The notes beneath the pieces were generated by a model. The model was not told the DNA's origin and did not search any database. It saw only the letters and a program-made list of their open reading frames with translations. Shown in pieces: positions 30,043 through 56,366 of a DNA stretch of 64,000 nucleotides (position 1 is its first letter; each line of letters opens with the position of its first letter). The DNA lies in the NCBI RefSeq assembly GCF_016026235.1, contig NZ_CP065613.1; one strand, given 5' to 3'. Source of the stretch: Escherichia coli (GTDB taxonomy: Bacteria; Pseudomonadota; Gammaproteobacteria; Enterobacterales; Enterobacteriaceae). Made by a program: the position numbers and the translations under genes.

Positions 30043-30358
30043 TATAATAAACTTACTTTTTTATCATTTTTCCACTTTAACAACATTTTGCTCCACTTTT
30101 CCACGACCAAACAACTTGAAATCTGGTTAAAATAACACGCAACACTATTCTTCTTCCTTGAGTCCGCCCGGAACTCGAAAAACAAACCGAGTTAAAGCCA
30201 TTTTTCACAAAATCGATTTTGGGTCTCACCAAAATTACGGGGTTGCATACGCATTCGTTTATTTTCGAACGTGTACATACAAATATGCACAAAAATAATC
30301 ATAATTATTTTCTGAGATGCATTATGATATGAACACCAATTTCGTATAGAGTCTCACT

Positions 30359-30949: not shown

Positions 30950-31046
30950 AAAATAATCTCGGTGTGAGATGCTTTACGTCTTCCAAGCCCCCTTCCTTGC
31001 CGTAAATGGAAAGATACATCTAATTATAGAATTTATATGTTTTACC

Positions 31047-34600: not shown

Positions 34601-34693
34601 GGTGCTGTTACGTTTTGCTTTCAGCTGGATTGTGCAGTTCTGTACCGGTTTTCCTGTGCCGTCTTTCAGTACACCTGAAATCTTTACTGCCAT
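31622..34693 (-). pseudogene. stfQ: Side tail fiber Stf, interrupted by an in-frame amber codon at 32114-32116
   Basis: 873-aa ORF (lambda-Stf-like [26 protein letters not shown]... start at 34693) and a 147-aa ORF with His-rich tail-fiber repeats share one frame, separated only by TAG. Confidence 0.7.
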
Positions 34694-34756
34694 ATTCACC
34701 CCACAAAAAGCCCGCCTGAACCAGCGGGCTGTCATAACACTGTGTTACCTGGCTAA

Positions 34757-35356
34757 TCAGAACTTATAACCGACACCCACGATGAAACCGTCAGTGCGCC
34801 AGTCGCCACTGCCGGAACCTTCATAAGCAAGGTCAATGGCCACGGATTCGGTCGGGTTAAACTGCACGCCAGCTCCCCACGCCAGAGACGTGTTGCTGTG
34901 GCGACCGTCATCACTTCCGGTCAGCACGTCGTGCGTTTTCCCCTTGTTGTCAGTTACGCGGAGATAATCCCCGGAGAAAGTCGACACACGGCTGTAAGCC
35001 ATACCCGCCATCGCATACGCGCTGAACCATTCATTCACGCGCACAGACGGCCCCACCATCACGCTGAACCAGCGGTTACGCACGGAATCTTCATGCCAGC
35101 GGGTATCGCTGTAACGGGTAAGCTGGCGATTCTTGTCTCCTGCATAGCTGAATGACGTCACCAGCCCCAGTGTGTCCGTAAACTCATAACGGTATTTCAC
35201 GTTAATCCCGTTAAGATCATCGCTGCCGGGAACGTTCGTCGAGGCATGAAGATACCCCGCGCTCAGCGTGGACTGATGTTCAGATGCCCATGCAGGCGCA
35301 CCGGATACGGCCAGACAAATGGCTGCGGACAAAATGGCGGCATAAAGTTTACGCAT
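34757..35356 (-). CDS. lom: Lom-like outer-membrane protein (Ail/Lom/OmpX family)
   Basis: 199-aa ORF with signal peptide and beta-barrel pattern, ending ...VGVGYKF. Confidence 0.85.
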
Positions 35357-35380
35357 AATTACCTCTCGCTTTTCTGCAAT

Positions 35381-35404
35381 AAAAAAGGCACCATTTCTGG
35401 TGCC
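35381..35404 (-). terminator. Hairpin plus U-run on the minus strand between J and lom
   Basis: Minus strand reads GGCACCAGAAATGGTGCC followed by TTTTTT. Confidence 0.45.
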
Positions 35405-35425
35405 CTTATATGGGTTATAACAATT

Positions 35426-38838
<3,413 letters not shown>

Positions 38839-38895
38839 TCACGCTCCATAAACGACAAAACCGCCCGGAGGCGGTTTCACATAAAACGTTTTTCA

Positions 38896-39543
38896 TCAGC
38901 GACCAATCACCACAACCTGACCACCATCCCCTTCGTCTGCCGTGCGGATCTCCTGAGAGACCACCCGCGACCCCACGCGCATTTCACCGTACAGAACGGG
39001 CAGAACATTGCCCTGGGCAACCATGTTATCCAGTGAGGAGAAATAGGTGTTCTGTTTGCCGTTATCTGTACTTGCTGCCGTGGGCGTCCTGGCTTTCGGT
39101 GCCAGCATCTGCGCCACTCCGCCCAGGATCATACTGGCCCCTGCCGCATACATGCCCGATACAGCCGCGGCACCCAGCCAGCCCACAGGGTTCCACCATG
39201 CCACCGCAATCAGCGCCACCCCCAGCACCACCTGAAACACACTGCCACTTTTAGCTCCCGCCAGACGCGGCACGATGTGGATCACGGCACCATTTGCCAG
39301 CGGCTCATTAAGACGGGCAGACAATTCGGTTTCACCTGCATCACGCCCGGCAATGCGTACCTGGTACCAGCCGTCGCTCAGTTTCTGACGAAACGCCGGG
39401 ATCTGCATGGCCAGCGCCCGGATGGCTTCGGACCCCGTTTTCACTCGAAGGTCGATGCGGCGGCCAAATCGTTGTAAATCCCCGTAAAGGCAGATGCGTG
39501 CCATGCCCGGTGACGCCAGAGGGAGTGTGTGCGTCGCTGCCAT
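38896..39543 (-). CDS. Tail assembly protein I (lambda gpI-like)
   Basis: 215-aa ORF in lambda gene order. Confidence 0.85.
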   Translation of the reverse strand: MAATHTLPLASPGMARICLYGDLQRFGRRIDLRVKTGSEAIRALAMQIPAFRQKLSDGWYQVRIAGRDAGETELSARLNEPLANGAVIHIVPRLAGAKSGSVFQVVLGVALIAVAWWNPVGWLGAAAVSGMYAAGASMILGGVAQMLAPKARTPTAASTDNGKQNTYFSSLDNMVAQGNVLPVLYGEMRVGSRVVSQEIRTADEGDGGQVVVIGR

Positions 39544-40193
39544 TTGTCGGTGTACCTCTCTCGTTTGCTCAGTTGTTCAGGAATATGGTGCAGCAGCTCG
39601 CCGTCACCACAGTAAATGGCGGCATGATTCGGCACCGATGAACCAAAACAGCACAGCAGCACATCGCCCGGCTGCGCCGCTGACAACGGCACCTGATACA
39701 GCCCTGTGGCCTCCAGATTATCCAGATAGAGATTCTGACCGTTACGCCACCAGTCATCCTCGCGATGAAAATCCGGCATCTCAATCCCCGCCAGATGGTA
39801 AGCATCCCGGAACAGCGTGTAACAGTCCGTCACCCCGTGCTCAAAGCGCCGCCCGGAAAGATGTGGCACACAGCGGAACTTGTGAATCGCCCCCCGGCAA
39901 ACCAGCCACCACGGCAAATCACTCTGCACCTGCAGCCGCCGGTCGGTCTCACTCAGCCAGGGCAGACCACCGGGGTGGCTGTGGACCAGCGCCACAATCT
40001 CACCCTGCATCTCTGCCCGCAGCCAGTCCTCCGGCGACATCCGGAAATACTCCTCCGGCTCACCGGAGATATTCACGCAGGGAAAATATCTTTCCCCCTC
40101 CGGTGTTCTCACCACGAAGCCGCACGACTCCGCTGGCGCACATCGCCGGGCGTGCGCCAGAATCGCTGATTCTGTCTCTGTCATGGGATTCAC
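39441..40193 (-). CDS. Tail assembly protein K (lambda gpK-like, MPN/NlpC-P60 type); 3' end overlaps I
   Basis: 250-aa ORF with HSHPGG (JAMM-like) and Cys-His peptidase-type motifs. Confidence 0.8.
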   Translation of the reverse strand: MNPMTETESAILAHARRCAPAESCGFVVRTPEGERYFPCVNISGEPEEYFRMSPEDWLRAEMQGEIVALVHSHPGGLPWLSETDRRLQVQSDLPWWLVCRGAIHKFRCVPHLSGRRFEHGVTDCYTLFRDAYHLAGIEMPDFHREDDWWRNGQNLYLDNLEATGLYQVPLSAAQPGDVLLCCFGSSVPNHAAIYCGDGELLHHIPEQLSKRERYTDKWQRRTHSLWRHRAWHASAFTGIYNDLAAASTFE

Positions 40194-40888
40194 TGCGAAA
40201 GTTTGTTAATGGAAAGGAAGCCGCCAAAGTTGCCGACGTTATTGCGAAACTTACAGCCGCTCAGGCATTTGCTGCATTTATCCTTCGTGATATCGGAGGT
40301 CGGCTGGTCATATTCATCCGCGACCGCCGGACCGTGATAACCGCACTCATCACCGCGATAGGTCCAGGTGCAGGTATTAGCCAGCATGATGCGCCCCGGA
40401 AAAACAGCGCCGTCCGTTTCCGTCGGCGTGGACAGTACAAAAGAGGCACTCACCGCGCTCAGTTCGCTGCACTGCTCGATGCGCCAGCGGCTGATCACCT
40501 CCTGCTCCGGATCGGCGTCACTGTTTCCGTTGACGAAGTTCACCGCATCCAGAAAACGGGCGTAAACCTTACGCCGGACCACCGTTCCTCCGACCAGACT
40601 CTGCAGGTCTTCCGCCATCCCGGTGACCATGCCGTGCAGGTTAGAAACCGTCAGTGTCGGACGGGCAGCACTGCCTTTGCCGTTCAGTTCAAATCCCGTC
40701 CCCTGAATGGGATACGCCTGATACTGTCGCCTCTGCCAGGTGACCGGCTCACCTTTATCGTTCTGCTCATTACAGAAAAAATAACGCTCACCACCGACCT
40801 CTGTCAGATCGATTTCCCAGAGCTCCACCCGGACTGACTGCTCCGCACGGGTGCATTCATTCAGTGTTTCCTGCCGGATATCCTGCAT
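40190..40888 (-). CDS. Minor tail protein L (lambda gpL-like)
   Basis: 232-aa ORF, same length as lambda L, in order. Confidence 0.85.
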   Translation of the reverse strand: MQDIRQETLNECTRAEQSVRVELWEIDLTEVGGERYFFCNEQNDKGEPVTWQRRQYQAYPIQGTGFELNGKGSAARPTLTVSNLHGMVTGMAEDLQSLVGGTVVRRKVYARFLDAVNFVNGNSDADPEQEVISRWRIEQCSELSAVSASFVLSTPTETDGAVFPGRIMLANTCTWTYRGDECGYHGPAVADEYDQPTSDITKDKCSKCLSGCKFRNNVGNFGGFLSINKLSQ

Positions 40889-41217
40889 CAGTTCACCACC
40901 TGTTCAAAATCGGCCGTTACAGTCACCCATAACGCCCCCACGCTTGCCGACCATTTACGACAAACCACCCTGATCGGTTTCCAGTCATAAGGTGGCGTCC
41001 ACTGAAATGCGCGGACGCCACCGTGCCGTTCCAGAAAGGCTTTTAAAGATGGGTGTTCACATTTACGAACACGTATCGTCACGCTGTAAATCGACAACTG
41101 GTTATTCAGTCCCGCCGCACGACGCTGTTCATAACCATCGCCCAGCTTCACTGTCACCACTTTCGGCTCTGATACCACATTCATATCCGGGCGCACTTTC
41201 CAGTGAAACGTCTCCAT
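40888..41217 (-). CDS. Minor tail protein M (lambda gpM-like)
   Basis: 109-aa ORF, same length as lambda M. Confidence 0.85.
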   Translation of the reverse strand: METFHWKVRPDMNVVSEPKVVTVKLGDGYEQRRAAGLNNQLSIYSVTIRVRKCEHPSLKAFLERHGGVRAFQWTPPYDWKPIRVVCRKWSASVGALWVTVTADFEQVVN

Positions 41218-44200
41218 TACCGATATGCTCCACTTAACCGACCACCATCACGGGCCTGCTGTTGCATAAAGTCCGCTGCCGCTTTTTTCCCAAGGTCATA
41301 AACCACCTTCAGGGCAGCCGGACCTATCTGCCCGTTCGTGCCATCGTTATTGATCTCGATGTTGTACTGCGGGGCAAACATCGCCATACCTGAACCACCA
41401 ATATCCGCCACAACCCCCAGCTTACCGTCAGCACCACGACGCAGTGGCAGAATGGCTTCAGGTCCAGCTTCCCCCATCACACCCGCGCCTTTTGCAAAAG
41501 CAAAAAACGTCGGACGGTTAACCACCGTGCCACTGTAACGACTCAAATCAGCAGACTGATAAATCCCCCCATTGGCATTCAGGGAAAGGCTGCTGAGATC
41601 AAATCCCAGTACACTGCCAATCCCTTTTATCGATTTCATCATGGTTGCCTGCGCCAGGATTTTCGCCATATCTGACAGCACCGAAGAGGTGAAGGATTTG
41701 AAGTTGAGTTTGCCGGTAGTGACAAAAGTTGCCAGGCCATTTCCCATGTTGCTGAAGGCTGATGAGAACACCTGTTCTGCTGTTCCTGCCGTATTGTCTG
41801 CATCCACGGTAAAATCCTGAAATGCACGCAGGACTCCGTTTTTCCAGTTACCCTGCACAACTTCAAGCTGTTGCCAGTAACGGCGATTCTCATTCAGTTG
41901 TCGGTTCAGGCTCTCCGTCAGCGCCTGCTCGGCCTTTCTGTAGTCATCCGTGTTATATGTCCCTTTCTGCTCACTATCCCGCCTCAACTGCTCCAGCTGT
42001 TGCTGGTATTTCTGGCGAAGACTCAGTTGTACCTGATATCGCTGCCGCTGCTGATCACCCATACCCACCGTGGCGATATCCAGGTCATGTTGCTGACGCT
42101 GAGCGCGCTCTTCTTCAGCCAGTTGACTGGTCAGCTGAATTGTTTTTTTCTTCAGATCGTTGAGTGCCGTTTGTTTCTGAAGCTCCTGCTGTTTTACATC
42201 CAGCAGCGTCAGTGCCTGAATCAGCTCATTCTTACGGGCCAGCACACTCTTTTCATCTGCCGTCAGCTTTTTCCCGTCCAGGTCGCTGATGCGCTGCTGC
42301 AGGGCCAGAAGCTGTTTATGCGCTTCAGTCATCCTTTCAGTGGCAATGCCTGCTGACTGTCTTGCAGCAGCAATCTGTCCTTCCACCTGTGCCTGTTGCT
42401 GACTGTACTGCAGCAATAACCGGGTGGCCTCATCATTACGGGTTTCGCGTGTTTTTTTCTTACCGGATGCCAGGGCTTTCTCGTAACGTTCATTTTCACG
42501 TTGTATCGCCGCATCCCTGACAGCCTGGTCGGCGTACTGCATGGCATTAATACGCGCAATTTCACGCTGATGTCGTGCTGCTTCCGTTTCATTCATCCGG
42601 TTCAGTGCAGCATTTTCAGCATTACGTCGTTTCTGTTGCTCCTGATAATTCCGCTCTGCCTGCTCTTTTGCATCCTGCAAATCCTTCTGGCGTTTTTTCT
42701 CCTGAAGATCGTTAAGACGCTGCTGATCGTATTCAACCTGAGAAGATGATGCCGTCCAGGGGAGTCTTTTCGCCCGCGACACTTTCTCCTGTAAAGCGGT
42801 AATCTGTTCATCCAGCGAGTCTTCACGACCAATATTCATGGCCGCATCCCAGAAACGACTCCACAAATCAGACAGATACTTCAGCGTACTGCCAAGCGCA
42901 TTGAGGTTATTATCAATATCCGCAGTACGCCGACCGGTTTCCTCTGCCAGTGCAGACATGGCTATCCGTGCAGCATCACTGGACCGTCCCTGATCCCCAA
43001 GGACACGTATCTGCTCAAGCTGAGTGGCAGTAAGAAAATGCAGCTCATTGTCCAGAGCCTTCGCGGCATTTACAGGATCATCCTTCAGCCGCTTAAACTG
43101 ATTTATGGTATCGCTGACCGACTGGCCAACCGATCGCTCCATCTGTGCGGCAGCTCTCGCCACCATACCGATATCGTTTCCACGAAATGCACCACTCCCC
43201 ACCACCTGCGCCAACGCACCGGCTGCAGCATGTTGCGTGATACCATTCCCGGAAATAGCACGACTGAGCGTCCACAGCTGCCCGGCAGTGACTCCGGCAT
43301 AATGCCCCGTCAGCGACAACTGGCGGTTAAATTCTTCCCCCTCCTTCTGACCGTCATACCAGGCTTTACCCAGACCATAGACGGCCGCGGCAATACCGCC
43401 AATAACCCCGCCAAGCATCATGCCTTTCGGTGACATCAGTGCGCCTGTCCATCCGGCACGGTTAGCCAGCGTTATCCCGGATCCCCTCAGCGCCCCTAAA
43501 TTGCCGCGGGCCAGTTCACCTATCAGAACGCCTATCTCCTGGCGGGCTGCTGCACTTTTCAGACCCAGCGAATGCGTGGCTTTTCCTGCCTGCTCCATTT
43601 TGCGGATATACACTTCTGCAGCACTGCTTACCCCCAGCTGGGCTGCCCTGGCGCGAAGCAACTCAGAAGATGAAAGATTCTGGCGGGTTGCCTGCTCTTT
43701 AAGCTGACGGATAAACGCCACTTTCTGTCGGGTAGCCTCTTCCTCAGCCTGTGTAAGAACACGGGTTTTCGCAGTAACCTCAGAAATCAGCGCCAGATAA
43801 TCCTGCTGACCAATCCCGCCACTGTTTCTGGCCTGTCGGATCTGCTGCTGAATACGCTGTAATTCCTGCAGCCCCGCACTGGCCTGTTTCACACTGTCAA
43901 TCTGACGATAAAACGCAGCAGCCGCTTTATCCTGAGCCTCCGCCAGAGCCATGGCCTGCGCCTGTTCCTCGCGCATTTTCTGGCTCAGCGCCTCCATGCG
44001 CTGGCGGGTTTTCTCCACCTCGCGGGCCATGCGTTCATGAGCCTGTGCGTTCTTCTCCACCGTCTGCGCATGGACGGATGCGGCTGTTGCAGCCGAAGAA
44101 GCCGCCTGCGTTGTCTGCCGGGCGGCCTGAGTCTGACGCTCCATAAAACGCTGCATACGGGCAGAAGACCGTTCTGCATCGCTGGCTGCACCATTCAGAA

Positions 44201-44282
44201 GGTTTTTGATACGGGGAATTTCATTTTTAAACTCTGCCGCATCAATCCCCAAATCAATGACCAGGTTGGCTATCTGGTCCAT
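41217..44282 (-). CDS. Tail tape measure protein H (lambda gpH-like), start taken at MDQIANLVIDLGIDAAEF
   Basis: ORF 41217-44312; coiled-coil-rich about 1020-aa protein with gpH-like N- and C-termini (...NNDGTNGQIGPAALK...). Confidence 0.85.
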   Translation of the reverse strand: MDQIANLVIDLGIDAAEFKNEIPRIKNLLNGAASDAERSSARMQRFMERQTQAARQTTQAASSAATAASVHAQTVEKNAQAHERMAREVEKTRQRMEALSQKMREEQAQAMALAEAQDKAAAAFYRQIDSVKQASAGLQELQRIQQQIRQARNSGGIGQQDYLALISEVTAKTRVLTQAEEEATRQKVAFIRQLKEQATRQNLSSSELLRARAAQLGVSSAAEVYIRKMEQAGKATHSLGLKSAAARQEIGVLIGELARGNLGALRGSGITLANRAGWTGALMSPKGMMLGGVIGGIAAAVYGLGKAWYDGQKEGEEFNRQLSLTGHYAGVTAGQLWTLSRAISGNGITQHAAAGALAQVVGSGAFRGNDIGMVARAAAQMERSVGQSVSDTINQFKRLKDDPVNAAKALDNELHFLTATQLEQIRVLGDQGRSSDAARIAMSALAEETGRRTADIDNNLNALGSTLKYLSDLWSRFWDAAMNIGREDSLDEQITALQEKVSRAKRLPWTASSSQVEYDQQRLNDLQEKKRQKDLQDAKEQAERNYQEQQKRRNAENAALNRMNETEAARHQREIARINAMQYADQAVRDAAIQRENERYEKALASGKKKTRETRNDEATRLLLQYSQQQAQVEGQIAAARQSAGIATERMTEAHKQLLALQQRISDLDGKKLTADEKSVLARKNELIQALTLLDVKQQELQKQTALNDLKKKTIQLTSQLAEEERAQRQQHDLDIATVGMGDQQRQRYQVQLSLRQKYQQQLEQLRRDSEQKGTYNTDDYRKAEQALTESLNRQLNENRRYWQQLEVVQGNWKNGVLRAFQDFTVDADNTAGTAEQVFSSAFSNMGNGLATFVTTGKLNFKSFTSSVLSDMAKILAQATMMKSIKGIGSVLGFDLSSLSLNANGGIYQSADLSRYSGTVVNRPTFFAFAKGAGVMGEAGPEAILPLRRGADGKLGVVADIGGSGMAMFAPQYNIEINNDGTNGQIGPAALKVVYDLGKKAAADFMQQQARDGGRLSGAYR

Positions 44283-44583
44283 AACGCACACCTCCGGAAA
44301 TACCTTCCCCAAGATGCATCAGTTCTTCGTCCGTTCGCTCCGGTATCCCGTTCTCTTCCGGTAAAAGGCTGAAATCAGCCACCGCAGCATCACTGCTGCC
44401 GGACACCATTCTCACGATCAATGCCTTCAGCGAGGCAAACTGCGCATCCATCCACACATCACTGAAGCTCTGCATCCGGAAATAATCGCCCCACTCACCA
44501 AGCTCAGTGGCCGACATTTCCGACAGCATCCGCCGCCAGTCTGCCCGCCTGAACTCCCGGGCAAGCCGCATGACAAACTGCAT
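44254..44583 (-). CDS. gpT frame of the tail assembly chaperone pair; expected to be made only as a G-T fusion by -1 frameshifting
   Basis: 109-codon ORF in the -1 frame relative to G, overlapping the G 3' end and the H 5' end. Confidence 0.55.
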   Translation of the reverse strand: MQFVMRLAREFRRADWRRMLSEMSATELGEWGDYFRMQSFSDVWMDAQFASLKALIVRMVSGSSDAAVADFSLLPEENGIPERTDEELMHLGEGISGGVRYGPDSQPGH

Positions 44584-44591
44584 TTCCCGCG

Positions 44592-44978
44592 TCAGGACTT
44601 TTCCGGCGTCAGCACCTCATGCTCCAAATCCCCGGCATTCTCAATGGCTCCCATACCGCTCAGCGACAGAACCATCTCCGCCCCCGCTCCCAGGGCATCA
44701 TACGACCATGTTGTAATAACGGATGCGCAAAGCGTCTCAACATCCTGAGACTGTTCCGCATTCCACAGTGAGCGGGAAACCAGCCAGGCATTGATATCCA
44801 TCCCCATCCGTAGAAAAGCAATCTGTCGTTCAGCCTCCGGCAGTTCTCCCTCTTCGGCATCAAACTTTGCCGTTCGCTGCTGAACAAACGCCAGATATTC
44901 AATTCTCTGCAGCCCGGACAGCTCACTGAGCACCACGGACTGCTTTTCATAATTAAACGTGCCCTGTTTCAGAAACAT
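44592..44978 (-). CDS. Tail assembly chaperone G (lambda gpG-like)
   Basis: ORF 44592-44996; start at MFLKQGTFNYEKQSVVLSELSGLQRIEYLA, similar to the lambda G N-terminus. Confidence 0.8.
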   Translation of the reverse strand: MFLKQGTFNYEKQSVVLSELSGLQRIEYLAFVQQRTAKFDAEEGELPEAERQIAFLRMGMDINAWLVSRSLWNAEQSQDVETLCASVITTWSYDALGAGAEMVLSLSGMGAIENAGDLEHEVLTPEKS

Positions 44979-45037
44979 CATGTTCTCCGGATGCAAAAAG
45001 CCCCGGATAACCGGGGCAAATGATGAGTATCGTCCTG

Positions 45038-45669
45038 TTAACCTGCGGCGCTGACAGCCACCGTAGCCACTGCCACAAAATCGCCGTCAGAAGTCATGCC
45101 CACAATGCTGACACTGCCCTGCTTCACGCCTTTCACCGTGGCAGTCTGTGGATCTGTCGAATGCACACTGATCGCTTTGTCACTGGCTCCGTCAGGTTTT
45201 ACTGTAAAGGTCAGCGTGGTGGTTGCTCCCGCTTTGACACTGGCAGATGCCGGTGCCATCGTCAGCCCGGTAACGCCCACGATTTCAGTGCCTTCCTCTG
45301 CCAGATACGGAAAACATCAACAGTACCGTTGGGATATTTGATACGAAAAGCGCAGACTTCACCGGAGTCGAACAACTGAACCAGTTTTTTCTGCCCGCTG
45401 TCCCCCGGACGCCAGGCCAGCGTCGCCGAAGTATCACCGACTGATTTCTGCCCCTGGGTTGTCGTTTTCCAGTCTGCATCTTCATCATCGAGATAAGTGT
45501 CATCTTCTGCATCAGCGGTCATTTCGCCAGGTTGCAGATCCTTCACCATCGCAAGACGCAGCCAGTCAGTGTCCGATAAAGGGTTCGCAAACGCATCGCC
45601 CTTGCCGGTATACATCCAGAACGTCGTTCCCGCACCTTTCGTTTTTGCCAGTGGATTTGGTGTGGTCAT
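45038..45669 (-). pseudogene. Major tail protein V, disrupted by an out-of-frame internal deletion
   Basis: N-terminal part ([18 protein letters not shown]...VDVFR, then 14 out-of-frame codons and stop at 45262) and C-terminal Ig-like part (...[25 protein letters not shown]...) lie in different frames; about 30 codons present in lambda V are absent. Confidence 0.65.
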
Positions 45670-45679
45670 TACCACCTCC

Positions 45680-46081
45680 TTAATTCGTGTACGTGATCTG
45701 GTACGTGATTTCCGCCATCGCCCAGGTGGCCATCTCATTATCACGTTGATAGTTAAAACCGAGTGGGATCAGGGTGTCGATGAGTCCGGAAAGTGCTGGT
45801 ACATCATTCAGGGCCGGGAAAATGGTGCTCTCCATCCACATATCCAGCTCTGAATCCGGTGCCTGTGCCCGGATGAAGACAGCAATATGCAGAACAGCCT
45901 GCCAGTCATCTTCATCCGTCATTTTTCCGGTGTACTGAGCATCACTCAGCCACACCGCCACGGCAGGCAGTTCCTGCGCATCAACAAATGCCGGAAGCCC
46001 GTCAAAAAACGTGGCGCTGTCTCCACACTGTTCCCGAAGGCGTGCCAGTACGACCTGGCGGATTTGTGTATGTCGGTTCAT
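45680..46081 (-). CDS. Minor tail protein U (lambda gpU-like)
   Basis: ORF 45680-46093; start MNRHTQIR... at 46081, overlapping the Z stop (ATGA). Confidence 0.85.
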
Positions 46082-46656
46082 CGGGTCAGCCATAACCTCA
46101 GTTGTTGTTTCAGTGCATACCCCAGCTGTTTCGGCATTTCCGCAGCAATGATGCGGTCGCGGGCATCTTCAAATGTCTGTGTCAGCGGTCCGGACAGCGG
46201 GATTTTCACCACATCAATGGGGTAACGATTTTTGCCATCAATACGCCGCATCACATGCCAGCGACCATTCGCCAGTTGCTGAATAAACGCATCCCGGAAA
46301 AGATATTTACCCACCTTCAGCACACTGCCACGGTACTGCAGTTTTCCACCACGCCGGGCCAGTCTGACCCGGGCTGTCCCCAGCTTAATGGCAGGCAGAT
46401 TGCCCCGGTTAACGCGGATCCTGGCCGTCATTTTTCCTGACGGACTGGCTTTAAACACCCGGACACGCTGACGTACCAGTTTCAGGGGGATCCCTTTCAC
46501 CTGGTTATCTCCCGCAACGGTATTCCCGGCAACCTGCCGGGTGGCAACCGAGACCGCTTTCTGTGCCACACGGTTTATCGCCCATGCGCTGGCCTGTGGC
46601 ACCATACGGGTATCAAGGCTGTTCAGATTGCGGATGGCATTCTCAAGCCCCTTCAT
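46078..46656 (-). CDS. Tail completion protein Z (lambda gpZ-like)
   Basis: 192-aa ORF, same length as lambda Z. Confidence 0.85.
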   Translation of the reverse strand: MKGLENAIRNLNSLDTRMVPQASAWAINRVAQKAVSVATRQVAGNTVAGDNQVKGIPLKLVRQRVRVFKASPSGKMTARIRVNRGNLPAIKLGTARVRLARRGGKLQYRGSVLKVGKYLFRDAFIQQLANGRWHVMRRIDGKNRYPIDVVKIPLSGPLTQTFEDARDRIIAAEMPKQLGYALKQQLRLWLTR

Positions 46657-46667
46657 CCCACACCTCT

Positions 46668-46943
46668 TTACTCAATAAAGATCATTGGCTTACCGTTAAA
46701 GCGTTCATGCCGTGTGACCGTCCATTGTTGTCCGTCATAAACAACGCGATCACCGCGCCGTGGGCGGTATCCCGAAGAAAACACCACCAGAGAGACCGCA
46801 GGTCCGGACAGAGCATTCAGCTCTGCCAGTGTTTCTCCCGGGATCACAGTCATATCGACATCATTAATCGAGGCTGTCTTTCCCATCTTTCTGACCGTGA
46901 TAGCATCCATACGCGCTGCCAGCCGGGAAAAGGGATCAGACAT
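46668..46943 (-). CDS. Putative head-tail joining / adaptor protein (FII-position gene)
   Basis: 91-aa ORF immediately upstream of Z; assignment by position only. Confidence 0.5.
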   Translation of the reverse strand: MSDPFSRLAARMDAITVRKMGKTASINDVDMTVIPGETLAELNALSGPAVSLVVFSSGYRPRRGDRVVYDGQQWTVTRHERFNGKPMIFIE

Positions 46944-47259
46944 TGAGTTTTACCGGCACTTCTTCTGCACTGGTTCCGGCATCTGCCCAGACAACCCCGA
47001 CCAGCGGATCAGAGCCGCTGTTAGTCAGCTGAATTTTTCCGGACTTCAGATAAACCTTCTTACCCGTTTTCATGTCATCCGTTTTCAGCTTAGGCAGCAT
47101 AAACACACCTTCGGTCATGCCGTCGCCTGTTTCACCCTGTGGAATATCGGTCAGCGCCACCGCAAAAACATCGCCCACCTGCACCAGATCTCCGCTGCTG
47201 ATGGCTGCACTGGCAACAATCGCCACCGTTTTTCCTTCTTCTACAAAATTCTTTGCCAT
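46936..47259 (-). CDS. Hypothetical phage head-associated protein
   Basis: ORF 46936-47304; probable start MAKNFVEEGKTVAIVA at 47259; sits between the capsid gene and the head-tail joining gene. Confidence 0.45.
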   Translation of the reverse strand: MAKNFVEEGKTVAIVASAAISSGDLVQVGDVFAVALTDIPQGETGDGMTEGVFMLPKLKTDDMKTGKKVYLKSGKIQLTNSGSDPLVGVVWADAGTSAEEVPVKLNV

Positions 47260-47345
47260 AACTGTCTCCGCACAGCCCCGTTCAGGGGCTGATTTCAGGT
47301 ACAAAAAAAGCCCTTACGGGCCATCAGAGATGTTGTCTGCGACGT

Positions 47346-49057
47346 TTACGCCGTACATTTCACCAGACCGCGGTGATCAACTGGCGCGACACCGGCGTCA
47401 ATACGCACTTTCGTTGTCACGCCATCCACACTGAAGCCCTCCATCTGATCAATATATGGCGTATCCACACCGTTGAGATAAGCCACTTCAATCGTATCGG
47501 AGCCTTTTGACGCAGCCAAGTAGAAGGTGGTCTGGCTGTTATCATCAAGACGAGGCTCTGCAATAACGGTCGCAAAATCTTTCACCGGGTTAATAATACC
47601 GGCGTTAATGTCAGCCCCCTTGACACTTGAGGAGCGAATGACCTGGTTAGCAACAGACTCCATCGCCGTCGGTACCAGTACGAACGCAGGACGAATATTC
47701 AGATGACGCTCCCCCTCTTTCTGAACGCGCATCAACTGGCGGGCTTTATCCAGCGATGCCACGTCCATTGCAGCGCTCTCCAGTACGTTTGCATGTTTCG
47801 CTTTATCGAACAGACTTACATTATCTGTGGAGATTTTCGGGTTAGACGTCAGAATGGCATAAACCAGATCGGCAATAGTGGATTTCGCCGCACGGCCCAG
47901 TTTCATCGGGACATCGGTCAGCATATTCAGATCATCATTGATAATGGCCTGACGGGTGATACTGAACAGCTCGCCATAGGTCGCCAGTGCAATAGTGGCC
48001 TGTTTATCTCCGGTGGTGACGTATTTATATTCCGCCCCTTCACGCACCTGACGCAGAGCACTGAAGCCCCCCATACCCACACGATGGGCAATTTTAAAAT
48101 CAGACAACTGACCTTTCCGCGTCCACTGTTCATAGGTTTCAGGGGCATCTTCCCAGCCCTGCAGAATGGCTTTGTTCGCAACATCCAGCAGAATATTACC
48201 GAAGTCAGACGTACTGTGTGTGAACGCCGCACCGACCATCTGCATCGGGTTATAACCGGAAACCCCAATACCCCGTTCAGTCAGTGACATACGGGCATAT
48301 TCACGCAGGGTCATCCCGTTGTAGACATTATCACGTTCGGTTTTTTCAAATCCGGCACGCGCCATCAGCGCCTGGCGGATCCCGTCCCCCACAAAATTAC
48401 CGTTACCGGCATAAATATGAGCCGGGGTATTTTTATTGGATGGCGTGGACTCGCGCCCCATCTCGTTCAACAGCTTTTCACGGGCCTGCTCCAGCGAACA
48501 TTCAGGATCGGCAAGACACTGAGCCTGCAGCGTCTGATAACGCCCGCCAAACATGGCAAACAGATCATTAATACCGTTTACACGCGCTTTTTGCTCTGCC
48601 AGTACCTGCGCACGGATGCTGTTTTCATCCACCACGGGTGCTGCTGCCTGCACTGGCGTCCGGGAGGCTTCAGATTCATTATCCTGTACGCGTGGAGCAC
48701 TGTTGCGTGGCGGAGTAATCATGTTTCGAATGGATTCCGGCATCTTTTTAAATTCCTCTGTACGTTTTGACTGAATACATGCCATTGCCTTAACGGCTGG
48801 CGTTACCTGATCAGCAAATCCATGTGCCAGACATTCGGCACCGGACATCCAGGTCTCATCCGCCAGCATGGCAGCAATTTCATCGGTGGTTTTCCCGGTT
48901 TTCTGTGCATAAGCGGGTAACAGAACCGCCTCAACTTTATCGAGCAGGTCGGCATAGGTGCGCATGTCCTCCGCATCACCGCCCGTAAAGCCAAATGGTT
49001 TATGAATCATCATGAAGGTGTTTTCCGGCATAATGACCGGGTTTCCTACCATCGCAA
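47346..49057 (-). CDS. Prohead protease - major capsid protein fusion (HK97-like), 5'-truncated by the IS600-like insertion
   Basis: 575-aa ORF whose first codons (TTG at 49071-49073) lie inside the IS terminal repeat; N-terminal part ClpP-like, C-terminal about 330 aa capsid-like. Confidence 0.65.
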
Positions 49058-49100
49058 TGAGGTGTACTGGCAATAGCGGACACTACCATTTGTTCTTTTT

Positions 49101-49919
49101 TTAAGCAGCCATCTGATGATATTTTTCCCTGAAGGCTGCCGGGGAGATATTCCCCAGACGAGAGTGACGACGCTGACGATTGTAGAAAATCTCAATGTAT
49201 TCCCGTATTACTGAGATGGCTTCATCCCGGTTATTAAAACGATAGTGGCTCAGGCTCTCATTTTTCAGCGTTCCCCAGAAGCTTTCCATCGGAGCGTTGT
49301 CGTAACAGTTACCTTTACGCGACATTGATGTTTTCAGACCAAACTGCTCCTGTATGACCCGGTAATCGTATGCGCAGTACTGTGAACCTCGATCAGAGTG
49401 GTGGATTAGCCCGGCAGGTGGGCGCTGGCTCCTGAGCGCCATAAACAGGGCTTTACCTGTCAGCTCTTTTGTCATGCGCTCTCCCATGGCGTAGCCGACA
49501 ATTTCGCACGTATAAACATCTTTGATGCCAGCGAGGTACAACCATCCCTCCTGTGTGGCAACATACGTCAGGTCCGCCACCCAGACCTGATTTGGTGCTG
49601 TAGGAGCGAACGTCTGGTTCAGCAGATTTGGCGCAACTGGCAGATTGTGGTTCGGGTTCGTAGTCGCTCTGAACTTGCGTTTCTGCTTACAGCGTAGCCT
49701 TAGCTCCTTACGAAGACGTGCCAGTCGGTCACGACCAACGATGATGCCATTCTCTGCCAGCTCCGTCTGGAGCCGCCGGGTTCCATATGTTTCGCGAGTG
49801 CGGATATGTGCCACCTTAATCTCCAGTTTTAGCCGCTCATCACTTTGTTTTCTGTCTGAGGGTTCATGCTGTACCCAGTTGTAATAACCGCTCCTGGATA
49901 CACCAAATACCTGACACAT
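49101..49919 (-). CDS. IS3-family transposase OrfB (DDE integrase domain); normally expressed as an OrfAB fusion
   Basis: 272-aa ORF with ...HHSDRGSQY... and ...GNCYDNAPMESFW... motifs. Confidence 0.85.
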   Translation of the reverse strand: MCQVFGVSRSGYYNWVQHEPSDRKQSDERLKLEIKVAHIRTRETYGTRRLQTELAENGIIVGRDRLARLRKELRLRCKQKRKFRATTNPNHNLPVAPNLLNQTFAPTAPNQVWVADLTYVATQEGWLYLAGIKDVYTCEIVGYAMGERMTKELTGKALFMALRSQRPPAGLIHHSDRGSQYCAYDYRVIQEQFGLKTSMSRKGNCYDNAPMESFWGTLKNESLSHYRFNNRDEAISVIREYIEIFYNRQRRHSRLGNISPAAFREKYHQMAA

Positions 49920-49954
49920 CGCTTCAATGGGAAATTGTTGTCGCCATTGTTCGA

Positions 49955-50257
49955 TTAACGCGTATTTTTCAGCGACTCCTGTGCAAAATACGCTGTTGCT
50001 TTTTTTAATATATCTCGCTCAAGGCGAGCTTCATTTAACGCCTTACGCAGTTGCAGAATTTCAGATTCCAGTTCAGCCACCGTGCGGGAGCCAGGAGTAC
50101 CGAGCCCTTTTCTGGCGGCGGTAACCCATTGTCCTAAAGTGCCTTCAGGAAGGGATAATCGGGAAGCGCCTTCACTGATCGAAAGTTGATTTTCAAGAAC
50201 CGTTCTGACAGCTTCGGCTTTGAACTCTTTAGAGTAACGTTGGGTTTTTCTGCTCAT
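49955..50257 (-). CDS. IS3-family transposase OrfA (HTH, leucine zipper)
   Basis: 100-aa ORF MSRKTQRYSKEFKAEAVR...; ends ...LKKATAYFAQESLKNTR with the A7G run (plus 49998-50005) at the LKK codons. Confidence 0.85.
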   Translation of the reverse strand: MSRKTQRYSKEFKAEAVRTVLENQLSISEGASRLSLPEGTLGQWVTAARKGLGTPGSRTVAELESEILQLRKALNEARLERDILKKATAYFAQESLKNTR

Positions 50258-50439
50258 TATTAGCTCCTTCTGATGCCATTCTATTTCAGGAAGGAGTGTC
50301 CGTTAAACTCAGGCTACCTCAGTTTTCCCTGACTCTTACGCCTTTATAAACAAACCAGATACGTAATTTCCCTCCATGGCTTTCCACGCCTGTCGGATAT
50401 TTCATTTCAATTTCTCTCATTAGTTAGTGTGGCTTTTAG

Positions 50440-50691
50440 TCAAGTAAGATGACGTCTTGGTCTTGCTGATGCCTGGCGCTCAATCCAGCGATCAATTTCT
50501 TCCAGGTTGTAAAAGCATGGACTGTTATCCCATGGCATACCGTCATGAGCGACATGCTTATATTCCCTTCCTTCCATAAACGATTTTTCCCGGGCCTTTT
50601 TTAACGTACCTTTTTTTATTCCTTTCAGCGCAATTAACTGCTCTTCGGATACCCATTTGCCGGGAGAGACAATCATGATTACTTCGCTCAT
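50440..50691 (-). CDS. Putative prophage excisionase (Xis-like)
   Basis: 83-aa ORF with a GREY motif as in lambda Xis; adjacent to the recombination-module remnant. Confidence 0.55.
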   Translation of the reverse strand: MSEVIMIVSPGKWVSEEQLIALKGIKKGTLKKAREKSFMEGREYKHVAHDGMPWDNSPCFYNLEEIDRWIERQASARPRRHLT

Positions 50692-50763
50692 CGATTTCTT
50701 TATCTCTTACATCAGACGAGCGCCGGTTGCAGAATACCAGTCACAACCGGCGACAGTTGAACA

Positions 50764-50904
50764 TTAAGAATCAGCCTGACTCGGGATCAGTTTTTGCCAG
50801 ATAACTGAAACGTATTTTGCCTGGTAACGGGCGTCATCAAGTGCATTATGGCGCTCACCTTCGAATGGAATAGCCGTTCTGGCATCGAAGTCTATGGCTT
50901 TCCC
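50764..50904 (-). pseudogene. 3'-terminal remnant (about 46 codons) of a DEDDh-type 3'-5' exonuclease gene, truncated by the IS10-like element
   Basis: Minus-strand frame open from the IS end to TAA at 50764-50766 reads ...PIDFDARTAIPFEGERHNALDDARYQAKYVSVIWQKLIPSQADS*; H-x-A-L-x-D-A resembles the Exo III motif. Confidence 0.4.
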
Positions 50905-52198
50905 CTGAGGAATCCCCAGAAAACAAGACAGGCATAGTGAGATGTGATCTAATTGATTGTGCTAACAATTTCAAGGAGATCACCACTATGCCTGCACGTT
51001 CATTATGCCAAAATTTCCTTAACAACATACTGGCCCCTTTGCATCTTTACCGTCAAAAATCACTGATTGACGCAACTAATGCTGTAATAAATGGCGCTTC
51101 CCTCACACTTACCAGTATCGGGCGTCATTTAACCGGTACGGCATCAGTTAAAAACAAAATAAAGCGGGTGGATCGACTGTTGGGGAATCGACATTTGCAA
51201 AATGAGGTTTCCACCATTTTTCAGCGAATTACCCAAAAGATTACGCGGGGAATGTCTCGTGTTGTGATACTCATTGACTGGAGTGCTTATCATGCCTCTC
51301 GTTTTCAGCTTTTGCGGGCAAGCCTGGCATGTGACGGGCGTTCTTTACCGTTGATGAGTTGTGTCGTTCCATCATCACAGACAGCGAATGCAGATGTACA
51401 TGAGCGTTTTCTGGAATCGCTTGCTGAGTGCTTTTCCCCCGGGACTGATGTCATTGTTATTACAGATGCCGGTTTTCAGGGGCGATGGTTCCAACAGCTC
51501 CGCTCCCGTGGCTGGACCTATATTTGCCGGGTACTGGGCAATCATTATTACAATGTTGGTAATGGCTGGGAAAAGGTGTCGGACTCAGGCACAAAAGCAT
51601 CAACGACAGCAATTTATTTAGGTGAAGGCCTGCTGGGTCGAGATAAAAATGCACAACATGAAGGGCATTTTTATCTTTATAAAAGTAAGCCTAAAGGTCG
51701 TAGATTTAAACGCTCGAAGGAAAGAGCAACCAGACCATCGGTGACGGCTAAAGCTCGTACTGCCGGGAAATCACCATGGTTTATTTTCACAAACAGTACT
51801 GAGTTCTCGCCAAAACAGGTAATGAAATTATACAGCCGTAGAATGCAAATTGAGCAAAATTTCAGGGATGAAAAAAATCCTCGCTGGGGATTTGGACTAC
51901 GGTTTGGTGCCAGTCATTCATCCGGGCGGGTCACGGTATTGAGTCTGATCGCAACATTAGCCAGTATCATTATGTGGTTAAGCGGTTTCAGCCTGGAAAA
52001 CAAAGGGATACATCATAAATATCAGGCAAATACAGTGAAGCACAGGCGAGTCATCTCGTTATTAAAACTGGCGGAGAATGTGATTCGACATTCTCCACTC
52101 ATACTAAACACACTGTCACTTGACGCAGGGCTGAAAGTTCTACAGCAACGGTATACCAATATGATAATGGTTTACTAAATTTTCTGGGGATCCCTCAG
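50905..52198 (+). mobile_element. IS4-family (IS10-like) insertion sequence with 18-bp terminal inverted repeats CTGAGG(A/G)ATCCCCAGAAA
   Basis: Left end 50905-50922 CTGAGGAATCCCCAGAAA; right end 52181-52198 reverse-complements to CTGAGGGATCCCCAGAAA (17/18); single transposase ORF. Confidence 0.75.
50988..52178 (+). CDS. IS4-family DDE transposase (IS10-like); start at MPARSL preceded by AAGGAG
   Basis: ORF 50937-52178; YREK signature (Y-x2-R-x3-E-x6-K in YSRRMQIEQNFRDEK); segments resembling the IS10 transposase as recalled (IKRVDRLLGNRHL, ITDAGF, YQANTV). Confidence 0.8.
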   Translation: MPARSLCQNFLNNILAPLHLYRQKSLIDATNAVINGASLTLTSIGRHLTGTASVKNKIKRVDRLLGNRHLQNEVSTIFQRITQKITRGMSRVVILIDWSAYHASRFQLLRASLACDGRSLPLMSCVVPSSQTANADVHERFLESLAECFSPGTDVIVITDAGFQGRWFQQLRSRGWTYICRVLGNHYYNVGNGWEKVSDSGTKASTTAIYLGEGLLGRDKNAQHEGHFYLYKSKPKGRRFKRSKERATRPSVTAKARTAGKSPWFIFTNSTEFSPKQVMKLYSRRMQIEQNFRDEKNPRWGFGLRFGASHSSGRVTVLSLIATLASIIMWLSGFSLENKGIHHKYQANTVKHRRVISLLKLAENVIRHSPLILNTLSLDAGLKVLQQRYTNMIMVY

Positions 52199-52824
52199 CA
52201 GTCAGCCCCGCTCTCTTTCGCTTTTTCCAGTCGTTCATCAATGCGATCGGCAACAATCACATTTTTAACGTTATAGACGCCTTTTAATACCTGAACGATC
52301 GTCAGGCCGATTGGACCGGCACCGTAAACCAGAACGGTATCATTTTCAGTCGGTTGACCATGGCCGGTTACGTTAGCCGCAATGGTAAAAGGTTCGATCA
52401 TCACCGCATATTGATCGGCCACTGCTTCAGGAATTTTCCACGCATTTTTTGCCGGAACCACGGCATATTCACTGAAACCACCGTCAGCGTGCACACCTAA
52501 TACAGCCAGTGTCGTACAAACGTTCGGTTTACCTATAGAGCACGGATAGCAATGCCCACAGCTGACCACCGGATCGACAGCAACACGTTCACCGACTCTG
52601 GCGCTTTCCACACCTTCACCCACCGCATCAATGACGCCAAAGAATTCATGTCCAATGACGCGCGGATATTTCGCAAAAGGATTATGCCCACGATAAATAT
52701 GGCTATCTGAACCACAAATTCCGGCAAGTTTCACTTTTACTCGTACTTCACCCGCTGACGGGGTGGGTATTTCACGTTCGACAATCGCCAGTTGATTCGG
52801 TTTTTCAATTAATATGCTTTTCAT
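52195..52824 (-). pseudogene. rspB: Starvation-sensing zinc-dependent dehydrogenase RspB, 3'-truncated at the IS10-like junction (about 208 of about 339 codons)
   Basis: ORF 52195-52848; N-terminus MKSILIEKPNQLAIVEREIPTPSAGEVRVKV and GHE/Cys zinc-ADH motifs present; reading frame runs into the IS repeat and stops. Confidence 0.75.
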
Positions 52825-52835
52825 TATCTTACTCC

Positions 52836-54050
52836 TTACCAGTTCCACAGCGTGCCATCTTCCAGACGTGCGACTGGTAGATAAGCAGGTTCATAGGGAT
52901 ATTTCGCCGCCAGCTTTTCATCGAATTCGATGCCAAGACCCGGTTTGTCTCCCGGATGCATATAGCCGTTATCGAAAGTCCAGTTGTGCGGGAAGACTTC
53001 GAGCATTTGTTCGGAATAACCCATGTATTCCTGGACACCGAAATTGGGGACCCACAGATCAAAGTGCAGCGCTGCAGCCATGCAGACTGGTGACAAATCG
53101 GAAGGACCGTGTGAGCCAGTACGTACCTGATACAGCGAAGCAAAATCGGCAATCCGGCGCATACCGGTAATTCCGCCTGCATGGGTCAGCGTGGTGCGGA
53201 TATAATCGATGAGTTGCTCTTCAATCAGTTGTTTGCAGTCCCAGATGCTGTTGAAGACTTCACCCACTGCGATGGGTGTGACGGTATGTTGGCGAATGAG
53301 ACGGAAGCATTCCTGGTTTTCCGCAGGCGTCGGGTCTTCCATCCAGAACATGCGATAATCTTCAATGCTTTTACCAAAGCGCGCCGCTTCAATAGGCGTT
53401 AAGCGATGGTGCATGTCATGCAGCAAATGTTCATTAAAACCAAACTTGTTACGTACCGCGTCAAACAATTTCGGCATGAAATCGAGGTATTTCTCCGTCG
53501 ACCACAGCTGCTCTTCCGGCCACTGTCCTTTGGTTGCGGGTTCATAAGCCAGACCTTTACCTTTCGACATGCCGTAGGTGGTTTTCATACCAGGGATTCC
53601 GCACTGCACGCGGATGGCTTTGAATCCCAGCTCCTGATGACGGGCATAATCATCCAGAGCTTCATCAATACTGTGACCGGTGGTATGGCAATAAACCATC
53701 ACCCCTTCACGAGACGCGCCGCCGAGTAACTGGTAAAGCGGCATGTTGGCAGCTTTGGCTTTAATATCCCACAGCGCCATATCAACCGCTGAAATGGCCG
53801 ACATCGTAACCGGACCGCGACGCCAGTAAGCACCTTTATAGAAAAACTGCCAGATATCTTCGATACGGTGCGCATCGCGACCAATAAGCTGCGGACAAAG
53901 GTGATCCTGCAAATAAGAGGCCACGGAAAGCTCACGTCCATTGAGGGTGGCATCCCCAAGGCCCGTAATACCGTCCTCAGTGGTGATTTTTAATGTGACG
54001 AAATTACGCCCCGGACAGGTAACAAAAACTTCAGCCTTTACGATCTTCAT
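52836..54050 (-). CDS. rspA: Starvation-sensing protein RspA (enolase-superfamily mannonate dehydratase-like)
   Basis: ORF 52836-54083; start [17 protein letters not shown] at 54050 (404 aa). Confidence 0.9.
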
Positions 54051-54255
54051 GTTCGATTCCTTGCATCGCTTGTCGTGATGCATGAAATCTACGCAACTGA
54101 ACTACTACCATACAAGTATGAAGATCGAAAAAAGCCGGAGTGATCACAAAAAAAGGCGTATATTTGCGCTGTGAATGGTTGACAAAAGATGAAATAGAAT
54201 ACCTTTTGTCAGCTGACGCTTCCTCGTATCTTATTGATAAAATGGATTTATGTTC

Positions 54256-54582
54256 CTACGTGCGCCCCCAGCCCGCAACAATGATCAACATGCCGCAAAG
54301 CGCAATCAACGCACCCGTCCAGTCATAAAGTGTCAGTTTCACGCCATCCACAACGCGCAGCCACATCAACGCCGTGCAGACATAAACGCCACCATAAGCC
54401 GCGTAAACACGCCCACTCGCCGCAGGATGCAACGTTAACAACCAGACAAACAGCGCCAGTGAAATCCCCGCCGGAAGCAACAGCCAGATACTGGCGTTTC
54501 GTTTTAACCACAACCAGGGCAGAAAGCATCCAATAATTTCACACAGCGCAGTAGCAAAAAATAGTAACGTTGTTTTAATCAT
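54256..54582 (-). CDS. ynfA: UPF0060 membrane protein YnfA
   Basis: ORF 54256-54591; 108-aa hydrophobic protein from [20 protein letters not shown]. Confidence 0.85.
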
Positions 54583-54716
54583 CTTTGTCACTTATTGACA
54601 TCATGTATAGTTATAGGGCGACATAATATCATCAATATAAACACCCTCCTGGTACGTTTTGCGTCCGCAGTGGATGGTGTAGAATCACCTTTAATCATTC
54701 ACACAGGGAATGAATT

Positions 54717-55058
54717 ATGAAAATCACTCTCAGCAAACGAATCGGCCTGCTCGCTTTTCTGCTGCCTTGCGCACTGGCATTGAGCACAACTGTTCATGCC
54801 GAAACTAACAAACTGGTGATTGAGTCTGGCGACAGTGCACAAAGCCGCCAGCACGCCGCTATGGAAAAAGAGCAATGGAATGACACGCGCAATCTGCGCC
54901 AGAAAGTGAATAAACGCACTGAAAAAGAGTGGGATAAAGCCGACGCCGCTTTTGATAACCGCGATAAATGTGAGCAAAGCGCCAACATCAATGCCTACTG
55001 GGAGCCAAATACTTTGCGCTGCCTGGACCGTCGAACTGGCCGCGTTATTACCCCCTAA
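54717..55058 (+). CDS. ynfB: Secreted protein YnfB (UPF0482)
   Basis: 113-aa ORF with signal peptide. Confidence 0.85.
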
Positions 55059-55092
55059 CCTGTTATTGATTTAAGGAATGTAAGGACACGTT

Positions 55093-55653
55093 ATGCCAAG
55101 CGCCCACAGTGTTAAGCTACGCCCGCTGGAGCGTGAAGATTTACGCTATGTACATCAACTCGACAATAACGCCAGTGTGATGCGTTACTGGTTTGAGGAA
55201 CCCTACGAAGCCTTTGTTGAACTCTCTGATCTGTATGATAAGCATATTCACGATCAGAGCGAACGACGCTTTGTGGTGGAATGTGACGGCGAAAAAGCCG
55301 GTCTGGTGGAGTTGGTGGAAATTAACCATGTACATCGCCGCGCAGAATTTCAGATAATTATCTCCCCGGAGTATCAGGGGAAAGGTCTGGCAACCCGTGC
55401 CGCCAAATTAGCAATGGACTATGGCTTCACCGTTCTCAATCTCTATAAGCTGTATCTGATCGTTGATAAAGAGAATGAAAAAGCGATTCACATTTACCGC
55501 AAGCTTGGCTTTACGGTTGAAGGTGAATTGATGCATGAGTTCTTTATTAATGGTCAATATCGTAATGCCATTCGCATGTGTATATTCCAGCATCAGTATC
55601 TGGCAGAGCACAAAACACCGGGTCAGACTCTCCTGAAGCCGACCGCACAATAG
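55093..55653 (+). CDS. speG: Spermidine N1-acetyltransferase SpeG (GNAT)
   Basis: 186-aa ORF; GNAT fold. Confidence 0.9.
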
Positions 55654-55655
55654 CA

Positions 55656-56366
55656 TTAATAATAATCGATCGTATTTTTGATGGTGTAAACCCGTTCGAC
55701 GGCGGGTTTTACTCCTTCATCAACAATGATCAGCTGACAGTCCACCGGATTGGCGTGACTGTCATATTCACAGCTCTGTTTTACATTACCAACTCGTTGA
55801 TTATTCAGTAAAGTAACCGCTGTGTAATCTAATTTTTTGATCGGGTCCGTTGATGGCGTGGCGCTGACAGATAATGTTTTGTCGTTACTTTTCGTGGTTT
55901 TACCCAGTGGATAACCCTGATCATCATAGCGATATTCCATCTGCATTTGTTTGCTGCTGGCTTTAATCACGAAGCCATTATCATCGGTTTCCCAACTCAC
56001 CCCGGCAGAAGGTAATTCTGCTAGCTGGCATTTTCCCTGTAAACGTACTCTCTTCTCCAGCGTCTCGGCATCACGGTAATAATTGGCGTCCAGTACCAGA
56101 GCGACCACGGTATTATTTTCCAGATCCAGTAATTCGAGTGAATCAAAACAGCCTTCTTCCGACAAAGTCCCCGAAACACGTTTCGTCACTTCACCTTGCT
56201 CATCCATTAATGTCTGAGTGAAATCTTTTACCGGACCACGCAGCGGATCAAAATCGAATTCATTAGAGAAACTGGCCATCTCAGGAGTAAATGAAAGTGT
56301 TACCTCTGTGCGGTCACATCCTGTGAGTAATATCGCGAGTAAGCATGGCAGTAATTTGTATTTCAC
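55656..56366 (-). CDS. ynfC: Lipoprotein YnfC (UPF0257); GTG start
   Basis: ORF 55656-56402; lipobox LLTGC near the N-terminus when started at GTG 56364-56366. Confidence 0.8.
   Translation of the reverse strand: MKYKLLPCLLAILLTGCDRTEVTLSFTPEMASFSNEFDFDPLRGPVKDFTQTLMDEQGEVTKRVSGTLSEEGCFDSLELLDLENNTVVALVLDANYYRDAETLEKRVRLQGKCQLAELPSAGVSWETDDNGFVIKASSKQMQMEYRYDDQGYPLGKTTKSNDKTLSVSATPSTDPIKKLDYTAVTLLNNQRVGNVKQSCEYDSHANPVDCQLIIVDEGVKPAVERVYTIKNTIDYY

Follow-up and report, generated by a model that had tools for sequence, protein, structure and literature searches.

The IS600 element at positions 49058 to 50321 of the window, the 64-kb stretch of Escherichia coli DNA analysed here, is very probably the single copy that was left when two directly repeated IS600 elements recombined within a lambda-like prophage at the ydfJ/rspB (Qin) site. 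The evidence comes from relatives that preserve earlier states of the same locus, above all from the near-isogenic genome GCA_014155105.1, in which both IS600 copies and the DNA between them are present. The element and the mechanism are both already known, the route is an ordinary one in prophage decay, and no new biology is implied. The features of the locus are listed in Table 1.

Table 1. Features of the prophage remnant and its insertion sequences, in window coordinates
Feature	Position	Strand	Remarks
Remaining prophage late region, head-decoration ("cement") gene to tail, tail-fibre and attR end; integrated at ydfJ	29029-47345	-	Synteny with the 1EC213 prophage
ClpP-like prohead protease/major capsid fusion gene, 3' 1712 nt of 2028 nt	47346-49057	-	5' end absent
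CAA, putative kept left copy of the 3-bp target duplication of a former protease-gene IS600	49055-49057	.	Precursor CAA/IS600/CAA
IS600 (IS3 family), complete, 1264 bp	49058-50321	-	Very probably the single copy remaining from two-copy recombination
IS600 terminal inverted repeat, orfB-distal (right) end	49058-49083	+	TGAGGTGTACTGGCAATAGCGGACAC
IS600 orfB, ATG-started ORF, 272 aa	49101-49919	-	Pfam HTH_21 and rve DDE catalytic core
IS600 orfA, 100 aa	49955-50257	-	Pfam HTH_Tnp_1
IS600 slippery run AAAAAAAG (A AAA AAG), predicted programmed -1 frameshift site	49999-50006	-	orfA frame
IS600 terminal inverted repeat, orfA-proximal (left) end	50296-50321	-	TGAGGTAGCCTGAGTTTAACGGACAC on the minus strand
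GTT, putative kept right copy of the 3-bp target duplication of the int-gene IS600	50322-50324	.	Precursor GTT/IS600/GTT
Prophage remnant int'-xis-'exo, 584 bp	50322-50905	-	99.8% identity to E. coli 1EC213
int, first 84 nt	50322-50405	-	Part of the 584-bp remnant
xis, DUF1233 excisionase (Pfam), whole gene	50440-50691	-	Part of the 584-bp remnant
Exonuclease gene, last ~140 nt	50764-50905	-	Part of the 584-bp remnant
ISEc60 (IS4 family, IS10-like ends CTGAGG...), copy 1 of the inverting pair	50905-52198	+	Transposase 50988-52178
rspB 5' fragment, 209 codons, cut by ISEc60	52199-52824	-	Sequence comparison

The initial annotation had described a 1264-bp IS600-like element of the IS3 family with inverted repeats, an orfA/orfB pair and an A6G frameshift motif, and all of this was borne out. 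The window copy matched sequences annotated as "IS3-like element IS600 family transposase" with 100% coverage and 99.8 to 99.9% identity, and near-full-length IS600 copies were found in 1,748 E. coli records. Its ends read TGAGGT...ACCTCA, in keeping with the 5'-TG...CA-3' terminal repeats of the IS3 family; they are imperfect inverted repeats, and 18 of the 26 terminal positions were identical when the two ends were compared with each other. Both reading frames carry the expected Pfam domains. The run AAAAAAAG is an A7G run that includes A6G, and a computed -1 shift at this site gave an OrfAB of 385 aa, which is exactly the length of the product called for IS600 copies in related genomes; relatives are annotated with "programmed frameshift". 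The orfB product is predicted to be made in this way, as the 385-aa OrfAB. In its length, its identity of 99.9%, its TG...CA ends, its A6G-type -1 frameshift and its rve DDE domain, the window copy is the same as IS600 of E. coli and Shigella and, in itself, an ordinary known element and unremarkable; it differs in the missing 3-bp duplication, as a probable recombinant of two copies.

The left flank of the element reads ...ATCGCAA and the right flank GTTTTCC..., and the two do not form a 3-bp direct repeat. This had been noted before, and control copies do have such repeats: the IS600 copies of E. coli O121:H19 16-9255 and of 2015C-3107, which were used solely as duplication controls, revealed TAC and AGA upon the same inspection. 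The 3-bp duplication expected of a simple IS600 insertion is therefore absent from the window copy. The uninterrupted protease/capsid gene reads CAATGA at the break, and TGA is common to the IS end and the target; despite this ambiguity the end of the element was set at 49058, because the full 1264 bp align to other copies. If the window copy is a recombinant of two copies, as we conclude below, it would lack a duplication for this reason, and the lack reflects the history of the copy and not the nature of the element. Apart from this, an IS600 in the tail-fibre assembly gene of E. coli O121:H19 16-9255 (locus L003, 1407-2670) has the flanks CCC and CTC, an imperfect 3-bp repeat; this may be another recombinant or a mutated junction.

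On its left side, the element abuts a capsid fusion gene whose 5' protease part had been reported missing. In fact, the first 316 nt of the 2028-nt gene are absent; the truncated gene matched the Pfam profile CLP_protease from profile position 91 of 182 onwards, followed by Phage_capsid_4. The remaining stretch (47346-49057) was 99.8% identical to the best of the intact 2028-nt genes, and some 2,000 E. coli genomes hold most of it. Head-decoration and tail genes of a lambda-like prophage lie downstream. In the synteny maps, the late genes are collinear and bounded by ydfJ' and rspB, as in a lambdoid prophage at the Qin site, and the match of the window to the prophage-free genome FDAARGOS_943 ends at position 29028. 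The portal and terminase genes had been said to be missing as well; indeed, the DNA of a relative that bears both had no match anywhere in the 64-kb window. What survives at this locus is a dead remnant, composed of the 3' part of the capsid gene, tail genes and xis.

A comparison with related strains carrying the uninterrupted prophage, which the initial annotation had called for, was done by mapping the window at base level onto the prophage of E. coli 1EC213 (NZ_CP061101.1), which is integrated between rspB and ydfJ. The two prophages have the same integration site, and their DNA is 96 to 99.8% identical over int-xis-exo and from capsid to tail, but the window has kept just the late region, between the capsid 3' part and attR, and an inverted scrap of 584 bp, and its tail-tube and J genes are broken. 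In this map, the 584-bp block to the right of IS600 aligned to the plus strand, whereas every neighbouring window block aligned to the minus strand. The orientation of the scrap is thus opposite to that of the capsid/tail genes and also to that of rspAB in the chromosomal flank. An inverted fragment of this kind is not explicable by a single adjacent deletion, and therefore relatives were sought.

Next to the scrap lies a copy of ISEc60 with the Pfam domain DDE_Tnp_1 and the ends CTGAGGAATCCCC and CTGAGGGATCCCC, which was 99.5 to 100% identical to annotated ISEc60. With DDE_Tnp_1, IS10-like terminal repeats and a 9- to 10-bp duplication, ISEc60 is a member of the IS4 family (IS10-like). The window copy has no target duplication (TGGCTTTCCC versus CAGTCAGCCC), whereas 10-bp repeats were seen at other ISEc60 copies (loci L005, L006, L008 and L047). 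The 10-bp repeat is missing from the window copy because of the inversion detailed below.

When the junction region (48500-52700) was compared with 5,426 complete E. coli genomes, no record covered more than 44% of it. O121:H19 16-9255 and 2015C-3107 were considered as sharing the junction and rejected, since the IS600 of the former lies elsewhere, between xis and exo, and that of the latter further into the capsid gene. Some ISEc60 copies seemed to have flanking bases in common with the window, but on inspection these proved to be unrelated insertions. Relatives were found through exact-protein look-ups with junction-specific and rare lineage-specific products; with a common head protein of 107 aa, matches in unrelated genomes predominated.

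These relatives preserve successive states of the locus in four public genomes. The empty site is found in FDAARGOS_943, the closest named complete genome, which has an intact ydfJ and is 99.9% identical in the flank. In GCA_901482675.2, the same ISEc60 is present in rspB as a simple insertion with a perfect GGGCTGACTG repeat; past ISEc60, the remainder of rspB is followed by int, xis and exo, all intact and still oriented as they were originally. GCA_014155105.1 contains the ISEc60 inversion and two IS600 copies. In the orientation of the window, the order there is late genes to exo', ISEc60 copy 2, rspB 3' end-attL-int, IS600, int 5' end-xis-'exo, ISEc60 copy 1 and rspB' rspA. The two ISEc60 copies carry both 10-bp targets in a reciprocal inverted arrangement, and exo' begins at reference position 20574/5, whereas the fragment in the window ends at 20584. 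The reciprocal targets together with the exo' positions demonstrate that a 2.36-kb segment was inverted between the two ISEc60 copies. The two IS600 copies are on the same strand, one in int and one in the protease/capsid gene, and each has its own 3-bp repeat, with GTT on both sides of the former and CAA on both sides of the latter; portal and terminase are intact beyond the protease-gene copy. The last state, with the 27-kb deletion, is that of GCA_900449985.1, whose contig UGFA01000002.1 was 100% identical to window positions 42195 to 62824, across the junctions. In addition, the draft genome GCA_001907535.1 has the private tail-tube frameshift of the window, yet the interval is undeleted: it is present as a single contig of 22,834 bp that extends from the IS600 right end, followed by CAATGACC... 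(protease 5' end), to exo' and ISEc60.

If the window arose by recombination between two pre-existing IS600 copies, a relative should have a copy in the same orientation at each endpoint, each with its own duplication, and removal of the interval and one IS from this precursor should give the window, hybrid flanks included. Both were found. For the alignment, two overlapping loci of GCA_014155105.1 were merged. Window positions 46017 to 50321 correspond to the capsid side plus the protease-gene IS600 copy, with 2 mismatches, both of them within the IS (positions 1033 and 1187), and window positions 49058 to 56032 correspond to the int-gene IS600 copy and everything rightward of it, with 100% identity. 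Between the two alignments there is an offset of 27,035 bp, the length of one IS600 together with the 25,771 bp that separate the copies. The hybrid flanks, CAA on one side and GTT on the other, would then result from recombination between the two pre-existing copies, and the absent target duplication is fully accounted for. No difference was found between the window IS600 and the int copy of GCA_014155105.1, whose alleles it has at positions 1033 and 1187. A crossover somewhere in IS positions 1 to 1032 would fit this pattern, but the two SNPs might also postdate the split of the lineages. When DNA of the deleted interval was compared with the window, there was no match apart from ISEc60. The precursor state is read here from a sister genome, which is not the literal ancestor.

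From these states, the following history is reconstructed. ISEc60 inserted into rspB beside attL, with a 10-bp duplication. The 3' end of the prophage exonuclease gene then acquired a second ISEc60 in the opposite orientation, and the 2.36-kb segment rspB'-attL-int-xis-'exo between the two copies was inverted. One IS600 inserted into int, duplicating GTT, and another one, in the same orientation, into codon 106 of the protease/capsid gene, duplicating CAA. In the fourth step, a crossover between the two IS600 copies would have looped out 27,035 bp, which were lost. The lost segment would comprise the 5' end of the protease gene, portal and both terminase genes (large and small); the genes for lysis together with Q; those for replication and immunity, along with dicB and the greater part of exo; and, finally, copy 2 of ISEc60, the 3' end of rspB, attL and the bulk of int. 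The first three steps, and the arithmetic of the fourth, are read directly from the sequences; the fourth step itself was most likely RecA-type homologous recombination by the host, to judge from the product and from the literature. The ISEc60 inversion is in this order an earlier event, separate from the IS600 deletion. A first model, in which the IS600 pair made the inversion and ISEc60 then made an adjacent deletion, was rejected; GCA_014155105.1 shows the reverse order.

The initial annotation had concluded that the locus arose by an IS-mediated adjacent deletion rather than by a simple insertion. The conclusion holds insofar as the deletion is real and linked to IS600 and the element is not a simple insertion, but a deletion made next to a single IS does not agree with the relative, which has two IS600 copies. 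Adjacent deletions by IS3-family elements have been described, as for IS629 with IEE in O157, and a single IS600, for example the int copy, could in principle have made a transposase-driven deletion that reached a naive site within the protease gene; in that case, the window copy would lack a target duplication, as it does, and would be identical over its whole length to the int copy of the relative, which it is. However, such a deletion calls for a far endpoint without an earlier IS copy, and the endpoint is not naive: two relatives have an independent IS600 insertion at precisely this nucleotide, and one of the two has the private frameshift of the window lineage. The IS600 at this endpoint has its own perfect CAA duplication in the relatives and is in the same orientation, a coincidence that is not credible unless the copy pre-existed. 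We therefore regard a single-copy adjacent deletion as quite improbable. Excision of a transposase or IEE type, with the outer ends of the two separate IS600 copies brought into synapsis, is a different matter, because a transposase-assisted or IEE-type process acting on two copies would give the same product as homologous recombination. Loss of the interval by this route is unlikely; if it did occur, the near-isogenic genomes would be a natural record of "composite" excision by an IS3-family element.

The deletion could also be unreal, if two IS600 repeats had been collapsed during assembly and the interval dropped; at about 99.8% identity over 1264 bp, the copies are the kind of repeat that typically leads to misjoins in short-read assemblies. 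Against this, the same structure lies within a 4.56-Mb contig of GCA_900449985.1, from which the window differs by a 1-bp indel 13 kb away, so that the two may be separate assemblies or versions. Moreover, look-ups of three interval-specific proteins (the exo' product of 799 aa, one protein of 417 aa and a DUF1398 protein of 129 aa) gave entries for these relatives and none for GCA_900449985.1, although absence from an index is not proof. An assembly artefact is thus highly improbable. The least probable explanation is a simple IS600 insertion whose 3-bp duplication was later mutated away. Nothing but the intact IS speaks for it, and it is refuted by the map on 1EC213, in which the two flanks lie 23.8 kb apart and on opposite strands in the uninterrupted prophage; furthermore, the missing 5' end of the gene does not follow on the far side of IS600. 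A 3-bp repeat together with the 5' half of the protease gene on the other flank had been named in the initial annotation as evidence that would speak against its reading, and nothing of the kind is present in the window. Recombination between two direct IS600 copies thus remains the explanation that we strongly favour.

Deletions between direct IS repeats are known to reduce two copies in the same orientation to one, with hybrid flanks and loss of the interval and one IS, and the same is found here. The case differs in that the target was a chromosomal lambdoid prophage and that an earlier inversion had been made by a different IS. Such deletions occur commonly in E. coli and Shigella (PMC5009759; PMC7373316; PMC5629016). 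In mutation-accumulation lines of E. coli, recombination between homologous IS copies was measured to be a major cause of deletions (PMC5009759), and the pathogenicity island of pINV in Shigella is lost by homologous recombination between direct IS copies (PMC5629016). In Shigella and EIEC, where IS600 expanded, IS-IS recombination is an acknowledged route of gene loss (PMC7373316; PMC5629016), and the stepwise dismantling by IS in IS-laden lineages of E. coli and Shigella has been documented at the population level (PMC7373316, PMC8072062). The four public genomes thus provide a worked example of how insertion sequences take a prophage apart step by step. For annotation, the locus is best described as a defective prophage remnant with rearrangement scars of IS600 and ISEc60.

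The ISEc60 pair of GCA_014155105.1 resembles inversions made by oppositely oriented copies of IS10/IS4-family elements, with reciprocal inverted 10-bp targets around the 2.36-kb inverted segment. The second ISEc60 may have arrived by independent insertion, followed by homologous recombination, or the inversion may have come about by one-step intramolecular transposition; the arrangement fits both.

Damage other than that caused by the insertion sequences was seen in the late region. The tail-tube gene (45038-45669, minus strand) is split into ORFs of 135 and 80 aa, compared to 247 aa in intact relatives, and the same frameshift is present in GCA_900449985.1 and in four LSG* draft genomes. The prophage remnant is therefore defective beyond the IS damage. 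The tail-tip gene J (35425-38835, minus strand) has a premature stop after codon 948, whereas a full J of 1136 aa is called in GCA_900449985.1. In the comparison of the two sequences, one 1-bp indel was found over 20.4 kb, and this indel in J may be a true mutation or an error of homopolymer sequencing. The tail-fibre, attR-proximal stretch (29303-33380) has diverged from 1EC213, with only patches that align at about 95%, and a 196-aa ORF is found at 30359 to 30949, where relatives have a Pin-like invertase (relative L023).

Two further arrangements of ISEc60 were observed in other genomes. In FDAARGOS_943 (NZ_CP065615.1; locus L047, 44938-46231), ISEc60 is present at the identical rspB site with the same 10-bp repeat CAGTCAGCCC, but in the opposite orientation to the copy at 50905 to 52198 of the window, which suggests an insertion hot spot that was used twice or an unexplained flip in situ. 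In E. coli RMDEC332 (locus L005, 2706-5303), two tandem ISEc60 copies are 10 bp apart and the pair is flanked by the 10-bp repeat GAGCAATCCC, an arrangement like that of an IS dimer, beside a duplicated hokE.
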